Positions 43,770 to 62,754 of a stretch of DNA of 64,000 nucleotides are shown here, one piece after another (position 1 is the stretch's first letter; every line of letters begins with the position of its first letter). The stretch is from Octopus vulgaris. Taxonomy: Eukaryota. A program made the translations under genes and the position numbers. The notes below the pieces were generated by a model that searched no databases, had not been told where the DNA came from, and was given only the letters and a program-made list of their open reading frames with translations. The DNA is taken from positions 44,392,001 through 44,456,000 of the forward strand of contig OX597815.1 in assembly GCA_951406725.2 (NCBI GenBank). The letters are read 5' to 3'.

Positions 43770-44145
43770 TGTCGTCCCTTCTAATGTGGTTGGTGCTGCT
43801 GCGTCTGCTACCGTTACTGCTTCTGTAGTGTTCTTCATGTGCGCACGCTGTAGCTTTGGGTGGTAGTGGAGTTGCTTTTGGTGCAGCCTGCGTTTCCTGC
43901 TGCAGGTGCTGTTGCAGTGTCTCCCATACTGGAGGGTGTGGTGTGGTTCTCCATTATTTTCAGTGAGCAAAAGGCTTTGAGGTAGTCTTTCTGCCCGCAG
44001 AGAAAGCACATCAGTCTGCGCCCCTCGAAAAATACGGGCAGCTTTGCTCCCTCAGCAGGTGGATTACATCTGGAATGCTTTCTGGAATGCCTGCTGATTG
44101 CCAGAATCAACTCTTCTGTACCCTCACTCCACCAGCTTTGTTGGT
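43770..44145 (-). mobile_element. LINE ORF1 (gag-like zinc knuckle) fragment, probably Tx1/L1 type
   Basis: ORF 43835-44110 LPVFFEGRRLMCFLCGQKDYLKAFC (degenerate CX2CX4HX4C) followed by low-complexity sequence. Confidence 0.55.
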
Positions 44146-44230
44146 TTGGTTCATCAAAATGTGACCGCGTGTGTACCGTTGGCGATTTTTTTCCTCCGTC
44201 TTTGCTTCTCTGAATCTTTCCTTTTCCTAT

Positions 44231-44265
44231 GTTTCTGACGAAGAGCTCCGCTCGAAACGTTAAAC
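44231..44265 (+). ncRNA. Minimal type I hammerhead ribozyme (Penelope type)
   Basis: GUUU-CUGACGA-A-GAGC UCC GCUC-GAAA-C-GUU-AAAC: intact core, 4-bp stems I and II, palindromic ACGU in place of stem III. Confidence 0.8.
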
Positions 44266-44372
44266 CCTCCTTCTTTCCTTCCTTCCTGAGCGTCCAATAC
44301 TTTATTTGTTCCTCGTCCTCGCGTTATTGTGTTTTTTCTTTGTGTTTTCATGTTTGGATTAACTATATATAC

Positions 44373-44445
<73 letters not shown>

Positions 44446-44617
44446 TATAAGAAAAAGGGACAGGCAAAACAGGTTGCCTGACCGCATACCGAAAAAATAG
44501 AAATAGCAGTCAAGAATGCTTATTTCTATCAAAGTTGGACTCCGGGCATGACAGACCCTGTAATTCACATATGCAAAACAGAAGGAATAGATAACGAATA
44601 CGAAGTCTGGCGGTTAT

Positions 44618-44728
44618 CTGTGAACATCATGTTTCTGGATTATAAACATATTGAATATATATTCAATATATTTTTGATATATATTTCATATATATTGCAT
44701 ATATATTTCACATCCTTCTTCAACACAG
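44618..44728 (-). ncRNA. Type I hammerhead, unit 1 (core C3U, probably impaired)
   Basis: CUGUG-UUGAAGA-A-GGAU...AUCC-A-GAAA-CAUGAU-GUU-CACAG. Confidence 0.65.
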
Positions 44729-45261
44729 CTTTCCATTGAAAAAGATTTATCATAGATTTATCAAATGCTACGTACCTCAAACCTTCTGACCATGCGACAT
44801 CAAAATATTTGAAGAAAGTGAGCAAAGGCTAAACCTACATAGACGTTTGAATTCATAAATCTTCCCTCCAAAATTTTGCCATGCGCATTACAAAAATAGT
44901 TCCATAAGATGGGGAACAATTAGGTTGTCAAAGGGAGTGAAAAATCCAAATAGTAATATAATGATAAGAGTAAATAATTTCTATAAAGGCTTTTAAAAAA
45001 AAACCCCAATTATTTACTGGTAGAATTCGGTATGTAAATATAGCCGATTACCGGCAGGAACTTCTGTAAAGTTCAGTATATATATTGTATATAAGAAAAA
45101 GGGACAGGCAAAACAGGTTGCCTGACCGCATACCGAAAAAATAGAAATAGCAGTCAAGAATGCTTATTTCTATCAAAGTTGGACTCCGGGCATGACAGAC
45201 CCTGTAATTCACATATGCAAAACAGAAGGAATAGATAACGAATACGAAGTCTGGCGGTTAT

Positions 45262-45372
45262 CTGTGAACATCATGTTTCTGGATTATAAACATATTGAAT
45301 ATATATTCCATATATTTTTGATATATATTTCATATATATTGCATATATATTTCACATCCTTCTTCAGCACAG
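45262..45372 (-). ncRNA. Type I hammerhead, unit 2 (intact core)
   Basis: CUGUG-CUGAAGA-A-GGAU-(~70-nt AU-rich loop)-AUCC-A-GAAA-CAUGAU-GUU-CACAG; stem I 5 bp, stem III ACA/UGU. Confidence 0.75.
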
Positions 45373-46410
45373 CTTTCCATTGAAAAAGATTTATCATAGA
45401 TTTATCAAATGCTACGTACCTCAAACCTTCTGACCATGCGACATCAAAATATTTGAAGAAAGTGAGCAAAGGCTAAACCTACATAGACGTTTGAATTCAT
45501 AAATCTTCCCTCCAAAATTTTGCCATGCGCATTACAAAAATAGTTCCATAAGATGGGGAACAATTAGGTTGTCAAAGGGAGTGAAAAATCCAAATAGTAA
45601 TATAATGATAAGAGTAAATAATTTCTATAAAGGCTTTAAAAAAAAACCCCAATTATTTACTGGTAGAATTCGGTATGTAAATATAGCCGATTACCGGCAG
45701 GAACTTCTGTAAAGTTCAGTATATATATTGTATATAAGAAAAAGGGACAGGCAAAACAGGTTGCCTGACCGCATACCGAAAAAATAGAAATAGCAGTCAA
45801 GAATGCTTATTTCTATCAAAGTAGGACTCCGGGCATGACAGACCCTGTAATTCACATATGCAAAACAGAAGGAATAGATAACGAATACGAAGTCTCGCCA
45901 GACTTCGTATTCGTTATCTATTCCTTCTGTTTTGCATATGTGAATTACAGGGTCTGTCATGCCCGGAGTCCAACTTTGATAGAAATAAGCATTCTTGACT
46001 GCTATTTCTATTTTTTCGGTATGCGGTCAGGCAACCTGTTTTGCCTGTCCCTTTTTCTTATATACAATATATATACTGAACTTTACAGAAGTTCCTGCCG
46101 GTAATCGGCTATATTTACATACCGAATTCTACCAGTAAATAATTGGGGTTTTTTTTTAAGCCTTTATAGAAATTATTTACTCTTATCATTATATAGATAG
46201 ATAGATATATATAGATATATACATGATATATATAATAAGGGTGAAAAGTTGAACATTCATTTGATTAATATCAATTTAAAACCAGTGGCCTAGCATACTG
46301 AAAAATCTAAATTTTCTTGAGAACAATCTTTTCTTAGTGGTCAGACCATATGGGGTCTACCTCTAGCATAATGGATGTCCACTTAGTGGTCATCCCCTCT
46401 TACATGTATG

Positions 46411-48180: not shown

Positions 48181-48654
48181 AATAATAACCATAATAATAA
48201 TCCTTTCTATTATAGGCATAAACCCTGAAATATGAGGGAGGAGGATAGCCTATTACAGGACTCAAATGGTACTTAATTTACCAACCCTGAGAGGATGAAA
48301 GGATCAACCCCGACCTCGGCGGAATTTGAACTCAGAACGTAGCGACGGGCAAAATACCGCTATGCATTTCGTTCAACGTGCTAACAGTACTCAACTGGTG
48401 CTTAATTTATCGACCCCGAAAGGATGAAAGTCAAAGTCAACCTCGGCGGAATTTGACACAGAACGTACTGACGGACAAAATGCCGCACAGCATTTTGCCC
48501 AGCGTGCTAACGATTCTGCGAGCTCACTGCTCTGTTAATAATAATAATCTTTTCTTTATTGGTCACAAGAGCCGAACACAAATACATATAGGGACAATAC
48601 AAAACAGGGACAAGTGAAGTAATAATAATAATAACAATAAAAATAATAATACTT

Positions 48655-57065: not shown

Positions 57066-57623
57066 TGGTTTCAAATTTTTGGCTTAAGACCAGCAAGCTC
57101 GCGGTAGGGGCCAATGCTTAACTGGGACTTATTTTATCAACCCTGAAAGGATGTAAGGCAAAGCCGGACTTGGCTGAATTTGAACTCAGAATGTTAAAGA
57201 CGAACGAAATGACCTTTATTACCCACAAGGGGCTAAACATAGAGGAGACAAACAAGGACAGACAAACGGATTAAGTCGATTACATCGACCCCAGTGCGTA
57301 ACTGGTACTTATTTAATCGACCCCGAAACGATGAAAGGCAATGACGACTTCGGTGGAATTTAAACTCAGAACGTAACGGCAGACGAAATACCTATTTCTT
57401 TACTACCCACAAGGGGCTAAACACAGAGAGTACAAACAAGCACAGACAAACGGATTAAGTCGATTATATCGACCCCAGTGCGTAACTGGTACTTATTTAA
57501 TCGACCCCGAAAGGATGAAAGGCAAAATCGACTTCGGCGGAATTTGAACTCAGAACGTAACGGCAGACGAAATACCGCTAAGCATTTCGACCGGCGTGCT
57601 AACGTTTCTGCTAGCTCGCCGCC
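57066..57623 (-). mobile_element. SINE family A, head plus tandem body units
   Basis: Two near-identical units with the AAGAAATA|GGTATTTCG junction, then an older third unit. Confidence 0.88.
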
Positions 57624-60658: not shown

Positions 60659-61604
60659 AAATGTTACTGTTTGGACTTTGGGTATATGTCTGTTAGTATG
60701 TCGATTAAATTGTTATTAAAAAACACATGTCATCTTAAGCTCTTACCATAAGAAAACTAAGGAAAGTAGACAGAAATGCAGTTTCTTTTTGCAGTCCCAA
60801 CCTTTCTATTTCAAATTTTCTTTCTTTTTGTTTTTTATATTATAACTTTCAGTCAAGAGGGAAGACAGTACGCATGACAGTACTCATCTCCTGTCGAGTC
60901 TGGTCTGGAAAGTTATCTTCAAATTGAAAATGTGGTCAGAATGCTTACAAGAGATACTAGAGTTAAACCGAGCGACGCAACAAGTCTACGTTCCCACAGA
61001 ACACAAAGAGCTGGGACGAATACAAGGCATTCAGTCCGACGTTATTACAGTTCCACTACTGCAGCTCCCTAAATTAGTACTTTTTTCTTTCTTTTGTGAC
61101 CTCGTAAAGACGAATGGCAAAGTTCACTTCGTCTTGATTTGGTCTCAGAATACAGATGCACTATGCATTATCTTTCTCCACCACACTTCCGTTTTGTTGG
61201 TACGCACTCTACCAAGCTCAATATTATAGATTTTATTCCCCTGTAATACCTCTGACTGTATCTCTGTGTTACAAATCATCATTAACTCTTTCCCAAGAAA
61301 ATTAAATTTCATGGTTATTCCAGTAAAGATGTCTAGCATAAAGTAAGACTGGTATTTTTTGTAAGTCATGTGGCCTCAACAAACTTGACATATTTCAAAA
61401 GAAGAAAAATAGTTTTAAATATATCCCTCAACAAAAGAGATTGCACTATAAAACTACTTAATGTAATTGAGGGTTATAAGATTATAAGTGGGTATATCAT
61501 GATTTCTGTAATAAAAGGGTTAAAGACACATATTTATAAAGGATGGAACAGTCTATTAGATCAACTTTAGAACTTGACTTTTAAGTTATCTAGCCTTAAA
61601 ATAT

Positions 61605-62058
61605 TGGTTTCAAATTTTGGCACAAGGCCATCAATTCTGGGGAAGGGGTTAAGTCGATTACACCGACCACAGTGCTCAACTGATACTTATTTTATCGACC
61701 CCGAAAGGATGCAATAAAAAGTGGAGCTCGGCGGAGTTTGTATTCAGAACGTAAGTAATGACAAACGAAATGTCGATGAATATTTTGGCTGGCGTGCTAA
61801 CGATTCTCCCAGATCTCCGCCATCCACATAAATATAATATTGGCTTCAATTTTGGTAAAAGGCCAGCAATTTCTTGGAAAGGGTTAAGTAGATTACATCC
61901 ACCCCAGTGCTTAACAGGTGCTTACTTTATCGACCCCGAAAGGATAAAAGGCAAAGTCAACCATGGCGGAATTTGAACTCAAAATGTAAGTAAAGACGGA
62001 CGAAATGCTGCTAAACATTTTGCCTGACGTACTAACGATTCTCCCGGCTCGCCGCCTT
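61605..62058 (-). mobile_element. Two head-to-tail SINE family A copies
   Basis: Copies at ~61605-61822 and ~61840-62058, both followed by TCCACATAAAT; other family A copies at ~48200-48530 and ~51905-52112. Confidence 0.85.
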
Positions 62059-62754
62059 CCACATAAATTGCTCCATTCTGAACACACCAACATACATCAT
62101 CAGTTTTCACCTTTTTGCTGTTTATAACACAATGACTTGCCGACACACTCCACCACAATTGTCTCCTACAAGTCTAGTGAGTATCATTAATGCGAGAGAA
62201 CATCACAGCTTCTCCCCCCACACCGCATACATACGCACGCGCAAATGCTTCGCTAACTTAAGAGAAATAAGATTCTGCAACTTCGCCTGTATTTTTACCT
62301 CCCCACTGTCTGCCTGCTTGTTCCGAGACGGTGTTTTTCACTAACGGCCTAGAAGATAAATATAAAATGTAAAGATAAACAGGCATTAAGGGCTTAAAGG
62401 CTGCAAAACCCCCATCCCACCGCAGAAACTTACAGACAAACACATAGACATACGAACATGCTGTTGAGCGAACTACTAAAGTACCTCAACAGGTTGTATT
62501 AGGGGGGCCCAGTCCGTCACATTTTTTCCTCTCGCTACGGGAGTCTGTAATTTGAAACGGCAATGCATGCAATTTATTTGTTAAATGTGTAAGTGGTAAT
62601 AGTATTATTGTTAGGCGCATGTGTATGAGTTAATTAGGGTACGTATTTCTGTATAGGAATATATGCACACATGTATGCTTCATGTATGATTGTCTGAGTG
62701 CTTGTATATACATGTGTGAGTGTGTGTATGTATGATATATATATACGCGTGTGT

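Follow-up and report, generated by a model that had tools for sequence, protein, structure and literature searches.

A young hammerhead-bearing tandem repeat in TA tracts of the Octopus vulgaris genome: a likely Penelope passenger, probably copied from a circular monomer RNA

Introduction

A 64,000-nt stretch of the Octopus vulgaris genome (contig OX597815.1, positions 44,392,001 to 44,456,000; hereafter, the window) contains a tandem repeat of ∼643 nt, with one hammerhead motif on the minus strand of each complete unit. The locus raises the question of how such a non-coding sequence is multiplied, from what template, and by whose enzyme. In the accessible text of PMC4209133 and PMC7229834, circles made by hammerheads are proposed, and not shown, to be the templates for cDNA of more than unit length; likewise, in the accessible parts of PMC8557442 and PMC3846280, the origin of the tandem and inverted structures of Penelope elements, and the strand that is used, are called open. 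The present family is young and numerous enough for the circular template, the tandem/inverted origin and the strand to be tested from sequence: its insertions number in the hundreds and can be dated, their haplotypes can be read, and they have fixed start sites as well as ends at the ribozyme cut. It also provides the bench with two naturally occurring tools, a short cis-element and a hammerhead variant. A published description of the 643-nt family, or template evidence drawn from haplotypes or cut sites, was not found in the openly accessible literature; repeat databases may list the family.

Anatomy of the insertion

The insertion spans 44445-46194 and comprises two arms that meet 5'-to-5' at 45895/45896, with both 3' ends directed outwards into TA tracts. 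The tandem arm, on the minus strand, consists of unit 1 (44445-45088; 644 nt), unit 2 (45089-45731; 643 nt) and a 5'-truncated third unit (45732-45895; 164 nt), which starts ∼14 nt downstream of the predicted ribozyme cut. Unit 2 is our reference: unit positions are counted from 45731 down the minus strand, and thus equal 45732 minus the coordinate. The outer end of unit 1, at 44445, corresponds to the second 3' end of the family (unit position 643). The inverted arm, on the plus strand (45896-46194; 299 nt, 99% identical), runs through unit positions 476-643 and then 1-132, contains no hammerhead, and terminates at the main 3' end of the family. A sequence-only reading of this stretch had described 2.25 head-to-tail units of 644/643 bp between 44445 and 45895, differing between units 1 and 2 by two substitutions and a 1-nt indel. 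The tandem and its internal differences (44665/45309, 44723/45367 and one base in a T run) are borne out by sequence comparison, with one further change at 45823 in the partial unit, but the boundary at 45895 is not, the inverted arm having been overlooked.

The region is poor in GC (0.35 across 44001-46000) and, in line with the absence of a meaningful ORF claimed previously, no ATG-started frame around the unit is longer than 37 aa on the hammerhead strand or 63 aa on the opposite one. Frame analysis revealed no RT or GIY-YIG ORF in the window element, which is, therefore, not an autonomous EN+ Penelope-like element; an LTR-like frame was found in none of 81 insertions, and a bacterial promoter scan gave chance-level results. 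The insertion is flanked by a (TA)n target tract on the left (44364-44444) and a degenerate TA/TAGA tract on the right (46195-46234); because both flanks are TA tracts, a target-site duplication is unreadable.

The neighbourhood contains several further repeats. On the plus strand, 44154-44360 belongs to another repeat family, of which it forms the 3' end; its type I hammerhead is minimal, with a GUU triplet, no loop III and the core at 44235. This 3' end runs into the same TA tract as the insertion and has 80-91% matches in at least 16 other loci examined. A 162-aa stop-to-stop frame on the minus strand (43835-44323) contains, by eye, a degenerate zinc-knuckle-like cysteine motif, for which Pfam gave no match. 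The right flank (46215-46400) is another repeat, with 14 matches among the loci examined, often beside TA tracts, and short diverged tandem repeats of 126-235 nt with a SINE-type look, several of which have a common core sequence, lie at 38672-39084, 48255-48511, 57111-57577 and 61600-62068.

A dispersed family targeted to TA tracts

A DNA search recovered full units at 96-100% identity on 20 contigs, among 40 of 1393 candidates scored, which agrees with the earlier view of a very young, recently mobile element. An exact hammerhead pattern gave 360 matches across the genome (reversed control, 0), such that at least 360 intact hammerhead units of the 643-nt family are present and a single-copy sequence, which would have told against that view, is excluded; an exact pattern for the 3' motif gave 570 (control, 0). 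Our main sample comprised the window, the 39 loci that otherwise scored best and 40 more drawn in list order from the hammerhead matches, giving 81 insertions with 134 arms, and was selected for a full unit or an intact hammerhead. A second, unbiased sample consisted of 49 loci chosen by the 3' motif alone, and not by the hammerhead.

The anatomy of the window locus recurs throughout. Multiple arms were seen in 51 of the 81 insertions (50 two-armed and one four-armed), and all of them diverge. The main 3' end, at 127-138, is present in 67/81 insertions and never on both arms; the second arm mostly ends at 643, 620 or 591, 5' ends are variable, and 79/81 insertions end at 127-138 or at 640-643. 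The same anatomy was found in 43/49 of the loci picked by the 3' motif. Arms extend up to 12.8 units, and a 616-nt subfamily exists; 44/134 arms cross at least two cut sites, and both arms exceed one unit in 6/50 two-armed loci. A further feature by which non-LTR retrozymes are recognized is present in the family (e.g. L033, L048, L065 and L109) and absent from the window locus, where unit 1 carries C3U. When 20 short insertions are added to the 81, (TA)4 adjoins at least one side in 101/101 cases and both sides in 79/101, as compared with 8.6% of random windows; the dispersed arrays in TA tracts that had been predicted are, thus, found. In short, the element is young, dispersed, non-coding, TA-targeted and conserved in its hammerhead.

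This anatomy bears on the suggestion that the family is a satellite or DNA-level mobile repeat that owes its amplification to unequal crossing-over or to rolling circles of DNA, its hammerhead being a passenger inherited from an old Penelope end. Some arrays have 9-13 units, with variant patterns that recur, and would fit such a history, which is also close to the local-amplification scenario of a recent preprint (10.64898/2026.07.22.740005; accessible portion). Against it stand 3' ends that are fixed and 5' ends that vary, arms that diverge, the targeting of TA tracts, and short arrays dispersed by the hundred, as well as the ends at an RNA cut site and the RNA-level pairing kept across families that are described below. 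As an account of dispersal the satellite reading is already largely refuted, and overall we consider it very improbable.

Local growth does, nonetheless, occur: L077, L109 and L065, two of which belong to the 616-nt subfamily, are 6-13 units long and have variants that recur from unit to unit in several cases, and these are retrozyme insertions becoming satellites through local duplication. A separate peculiarity is seen in L075, L077, L083, L092, L096, L100 and L105, where the second arm often opens with a short stub of the 643 end before skipping to 626-549, the layout that priming at that end and early template jumps would leave. Two other routes to the inverted structure were rejected. Fold-back copying of one arm from the other does not hold as a general rule, as the 132-ended arm is shorter in 13 and longer in 32 two-armed loci, the junctions lie within 20 nt in only 4/50, and at two of the near-palindromic junctions the haplotypes of the arms differ; nor do the breakpoints abut, as classical twin priming on a single linear RNA would require.

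The hammerhead motif

Unit 2 carries an intact type I hammerhead motif on the minus strand at 45262-45372, with the predicted cut at 45267/45266 (unit positions 465/466). Each full unit reads, on the minus strand, CUGUG, CUGAAGA, an 81-nt stem II insert, GAAA, CAUGAUG, UU and CACAG, providing a 5-bp stem I, the core, a long stem II, a 7-nt near-palindromic stem/loop III and a GUU triplet. The CUGANGA and GAAA boxes, the NUH triplet and stems I-III paired in type I order are, hence, all in place, as the sequence-only reading had it; it had also placed one substitution at core position C3 of unit 1 (motif at 44618-44728, minus strand), and this is indeed the C3 to U change at 44723, seen in 1 of 92 aligned rows. 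Its AU-rich stem II loop of ∼70 nt, on the other hand, must be replaced by the 81-nt insert, which fold prediction closes into a paired stem II with no open loop. The isolated motif is predicted to fold into three stems, forcing of the active pairing costing 0.9 kcal/mol, although the 161-nt hammerhead region alone is not more stable than shuffled sequences (z -0.67).

The motif departs from the canonical hammerhead at stem II: an extra A on each side of stem II means that the G10.1-C11.1 pair does not abut the core. These extra bases are conserved in several sister families (the L089 and L230 types are canonical), and 505 further pattern matches with a short stem II also have an extra base on both sides; the second extra base (A or C), before G12, is kept in 360 + 505 matches. 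No earlier description of an extra base on both sides of stem II was found in the accessible hammerhead literature that we searched. With a GUU triplet, a stem III of three pairs and these extra As, the ribozyme may well cut slowly, a point in favour of a template left uncut or partly cut. Rfam returned no hammerhead match in the window region, but it also missed five relatives with canonical-looking motifs, and its silence is, therefore, uninformative; the Rfam microRNA matches in the window proved to be TA tracts and the palindromic junction.

Conservation was assessed between families, a covariation test within the 643-nt family itself having been set aside because the family is too young. 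With no pairing filter, 64 of 70 stem I cells are paired in 14 classes (shuffle mean 48, with 0/5000 shuffles reaching 64), the classes being related to each other and including single-copy mutants. The covariation of the stems that the sequence-only reading had proposed as a check is, thus, seen as kept pairing in stem I, and other copies do conserve core and stems, as the 360 exact matches also attest. A conserved UAAC/UGAC-like run follows stem I. Loop III is palindromic, in some classes with a mismatch at its centre, and its 7-nt forms (CAUGAUG, CACCGUG, CAGACUG and CGUAACG) are predicted to pair only between two molecules. Within the family, the hammerhead columns contain 0/39 lineage variants against 2.9 expected (P 0.05), in a comparison that is sampling-biased. 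As judged from these patterns of change, the hammerhead is under selection across families.

A structured 3' domain shared with sister families

A second conserved element is the 3' domain, at 45995-46194 on the plus strand (unit positions 575-643 plus 1-132), with further copies on the minus strand at 45600-45800 and 44956-45157. It is predicted to form a 9-bp long-range stem, between 46015-46023 and 46118-46126, and a terminal hairpin. The 9-bp stem is 98.5% paired in 15 sequences, as against 23-56% for slid controls, although its covariation alone is weak (37/500 shuffles). The domain takes up 109 columns, in which 8.2 of the 39 lineage variants would be expected and none is found (P 1e-4), whereas private changes occur at normal rates both here and in the hammerhead. 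The domain is likely to be an enzyme-recognition element. For the RNA as a whole, the predicted circular monomer fold is 64% paired, with z -5.3 versus 40 shuffles.

The 3' motif is common to other repeats, with 3,421 exact genome matches. Searches with two relatives led to families of ∼583 and ∼508 nt with a similar two-armed layout, others being of ∼550-595 nt, and every sister family carries a hammerhead at the same place. At least 10 such diverged sister families are represented (L089:3460-4570, L079:485-975, L215, L227, L265, L269, L274, L371 and L378 among the loci concerned), with 500-640-nt units where measured; several are commoner than the 643-nt family, and some have canonical GUC hammerheads. 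The flanks of many loci contain, in addition, at least 15 further unrelated types of type I hammerhead with palindromic loop III, and the genome is very rich in them.

One haplotype per insertion

The unit variants offer a record of what was copied. The mean distance is 0.54% within loci (87 pairs) and 2.0% between loci (3782 pairs). After homopolymer and AT-tract columns (126/643) had been dropped, lineage variants were uniform within a locus in 261/276 tests (273/359 before dropping). Private variants fixed in all covering segments number 26, of which 14 extend across both arms (including unit position 610 in the window locus); the other private variants comprise 122 that are single and 21 that are partial. 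The two arms are alike at all diagnostic columns in 44/50 two-armed loci, as compared with a distance of zero in 3% of random locus pairs, although many arm overlaps had few diagnostic columns. This uniformity of haplotype points to a single-monomer template. Two observations run the other way: the nearest neighbour of a segment lies in its own locus for only 37/75 segments, which counts against a single template, and in L091 and L095 (2/50 two-armed loci) the arms derive from different haplotypes.

Because variants are uniform per locus, new variants pass through one unit and are then multiplied. A circle gives such a one-unit bottleneck in every cycle; short sources combined with local duplication could give it too. 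The latter is the core of the main alternative, in which the same enzyme copies a linear multi-unit transcript, uncut or partly cut, and uniformity stems from sources just over one unit long and from local tandem growth. Uncut RNA is the main in vitro substrate of the Anolis Penelope-like enzyme, according to the accessible text of PMC11167929, and local duplication is visible in the long arrays, where L077, L109, L065, L045 and L041 show repeated variant patterns. A linear transcript predicts, however, ordered inheritance of unit-specific differences, and of the 19 locus pairs that shared a variant polymorphic in both, none shared a second unit-specific variant; moreover, the very young arrays L040, L068 and L048 have near-identical units, yet carry fixed private variants, and arrays copied in this way would shrink with each generation in the absence of a step that remakes the tandem. 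A source-daughter pair, with a variant in one source unit and in all daughter units, was not seen among the 81 insertions sampled. We regard the linear transcript as rather unlikely to be the usual template, though it deserves to be taken seriously.

5' ends at the predicted cut

The 5' ends of short insertions cluster near 466-477. Here, a count of ends based on BLAST (6 versus 1.4 near the cut) was discarded in favour of exact patterns, as it reflected in part over-extension (L324 and L341; L326 is ambiguous). The exact pattern for a start at 466 gave seven genome matches, corresponding to five true junctions in four loci and two point changes, and that for 467 gave seven, of which six (in six loci) are true and one is a point change; at the control base, 507, nine matches comprised one true junction, five point changes and three sequences from a sister family. 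Ten loci in two bases represent a roughly threefold enrichment (P 0.0004-0.008); the comparison is with one control base and with an approximately scaled expectation of 1.3-2.0 per base. A hairpin just downstream of the cut (469-475 with 493-499) offers microhomology, and may be an alternative source of the excess. In the 81-insertion sample, there is no excess near the cut (2/134 arms within 5 nt).

Such ends support the hammerhead strand as the template, together with some cutting in vivo, as far as insertion sequences can testify to either. They also suit a reading in which the template is the cut linear monomer, and tandems arise as the reverse transcriptase, on reaching the 5' end of a monomer, jumps to the 3' end of that monomer or of a sister. 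One locus (L359/L360) starts at 466 twice, with jumps to 510-512, and short jumps are common at the second 3' end. In the unbiased set, however, read-through dominates, with 78 passes through the site and ∼3 stops, and in almost every copy one unit passes into the next at the cut without a seam (78/92 rows identical), whereas jumps elsewhere are imprecise; we, accordingly, think this reading improbable. The linear multi-unit transcript would accommodate L052, which reads through one cut site and stops exactly at the next, and the window insertion, both arms of which stop 10-14 nt from the cut.

The search for a partner enzyme

The genome contains many identical-scoring GIY-YIG loci with intact 781-aa RT frames, ending in TA tracts with an optional short tail. 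The linker cysteine motif of this family is of the Neptune/Nematis kind described in the accessible part of PMC8557442. Represented by L141:2164-5550 and its copies, it is a young TA-targeted family of Penelope type with two alternative 3' ends ∼35 nt apart, and has a hammerhead with, by eye, a U3-A8 core variant. A second large clade of Penelope type (L379-L428; 20,482 candidates) has frames of up to ∼930 aa and, in its 3' region, a hammerhead with a 47-55-nt stem II and a palindromic loop III.

No autonomous element sharing the 3' end was found in the two clades sampled (50 + 50 loci of thousands of candidates) or among 428 loci. A Penelope protein match and the 3' domain occur together in 30/428 loci, and the four that have them in the right order are separated by a TA tract. 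Apparent partner links in L117, L136, L152, L159, L171, L274, L291, L371, L399 and L416 were rejected as separate insertions, mostly sharing a TA tract. Thus, of the earlier proposal that a Penelope RT/GIY-YIG is borrowed in trans, the part that stands is the anatomy, which is that of EN+ Penelope-like elements; an autonomous Penelope sharing the ends did not emerge from the 428 loci. From the insertion anatomy, we infer a borrowed Penelope enzyme.

It might be argued that the copies are simply truncated terminal repeats of an autonomous Penelope element, given that their anatomy is identical to that of Penelope-like insertions, and that autonomous elements in this genome have similar long-stem-II hammerheads near their 3' ends. 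Yet, what lies upstream of each unit is another unit, in arms of up to 12.8 units, and never coding sequence, and in the family loci examined no Penelope protein match is joined to the element. This explanation seems to us hardly credible.

A model for mobilization

By its sequence features, the element belongs with the non-LTR retrozymes and appears to work like a non-autonomous Penelope passenger; that it is a Penelope-mobilized retrozyme we consider very probable. On balance, a circle would seem to be the usual template. The description that we favour is, hence, of a young, dispersed, non-coding tandem, likely to be a passenger of a Penelope RT/endonuclease and probably copied from a single circular monomer RNA.

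In the cycle that we envisage, a tandem array would be transcribed on the hammerhead strand. Neighbouring hammerheads would pair via loop III, cut after GUU and free a monomer, which a host ligase would close; in the circle, the lone hammerhead would be nearly inactive. The enzyme would bind the 3' domain and cut both strands of a (TA)n tract, and both DNA ends would then prime at internal sites of the RNA: unit position 132 for one end and, for the other, most often 643, 620 or 591. Each cDNA would run for anything from a fraction of a turn to several turns, and the two would be joined 5'-to-5' by microhomology. A minority of templates would be cut linear RNAs, on which cDNAs run off at the cut, and the longest arrays would also have grown by local duplication.

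The most specific version of this proposal combines several parts: reverse transcription that rolls round a circle produced by the ribozyme; a Penelope enzyme, acting as a dimer, that primes both ends of the TA tract at two fixed sites on one circular monomer; multi-unit, single-haplotype, head-to-head insertions as the outcome; run-off ends that mark the cut in vivo; and a clan of at least 10 families with 500-640-nt units that share one 3' handle and an extra-base variant of the hammerhead. Taken jointly, these parts make a plausible whole, to which we give a little less than even credence.

Comparison with known systems

Among known systems, the element most resembles the non-LTR retrozymes of animals, at least as these are described in accessible text. 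It shares with them non-coding, low-GC (<45-50%) head-to-tail units with one type I hammerhead each, a circle predicted to be highly self-paired, a weak stem III suited to dimeric cleavage, and the coexistence of Penelope-like elements. The expectation in the sequence-only reading that its monomer would be unusually long depends on the yardstick: 643 nt exceeds the 150-450 bp given in the accessible text of the 2020 paper (Cervera and de la Pena, PMC7229834), but lies inside the 51-972 bp of the accessible part of the 2026 preprint by Li, Clavereau and Pollet (10.64898/2026.07.22.740005), in which local amplification is proposed, and size is, therefore, no novelty. What does set the element apart is that each array represents a separate insertion, targeted to TA, whose 3' ends are fixed and which has an inverted arm (the word 'microsatellite' is absent from the accessible text of the 2020 paper), and that, unlike those of retrozymes, its hammerhead has an 81-nt stem II flanked by an extra base on either side.

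The hammerheads of Penelope-like elements and of amphibian satellites are of a dimeric design from which low monomer activity is expected (PMC4209133 and PMC7229834, accessible portions). In common with these, the present motif has an extra base between A9 and 10.1, a palindromic loop III and, in a range of 5-6 bp, a short stem I; it differs in the second extra A (or C) before G12, in a 7-nt loop III that would have a central mismatch in the dimer, and in that the GUU triplet is common. Chlamys MRC1 (PMC8557442, accessible part) is comparable as a non-autonomous passenger of Penelope type with multicopy head-to-tail insertions, although in its clade canonical hammerheads are missing and the 3' ends are common to autonomous families as well; no such partner was found for our element among 428 loci.

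For EN+ Penelope-like elements, the accessible parts of PMC8557442 (Craig et al.) and PMC3846280 (Arkhipova et al.) describe partial tandems, an inverted truncated copy and a tail at one end, and those of PMC11167929 (Frangieh et al.) describe a Penelope-like enzyme that cuts and extends both strands of AT-rich DNA from two internal RNA sites. The element matches these in that its tandems are partial, a 5'-truncated copy is inverted head-to-head, a tail, where there is one, is confined to a single end, insertion is biased to (TA)n, start sites are internal and fixed, and the hammerhead lies upstream of the 3' end. Against this, it has no ORF, its tail is of ∼132 nt rather than 30-40, and its ends share TAT-like letters with the target; furthermore, its 5' ends are enriched at the ribozyme cut, whereas for the Anolis element no reads ending there are reported in the accessible text of PMC11167929. 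Overall, as retrozymes, their link to Penelope and unit sizes of as much as 972 bp are already to be found in published sources as far as these are accessible, the novelty of the family lies in the evidence that it provides on mechanism.
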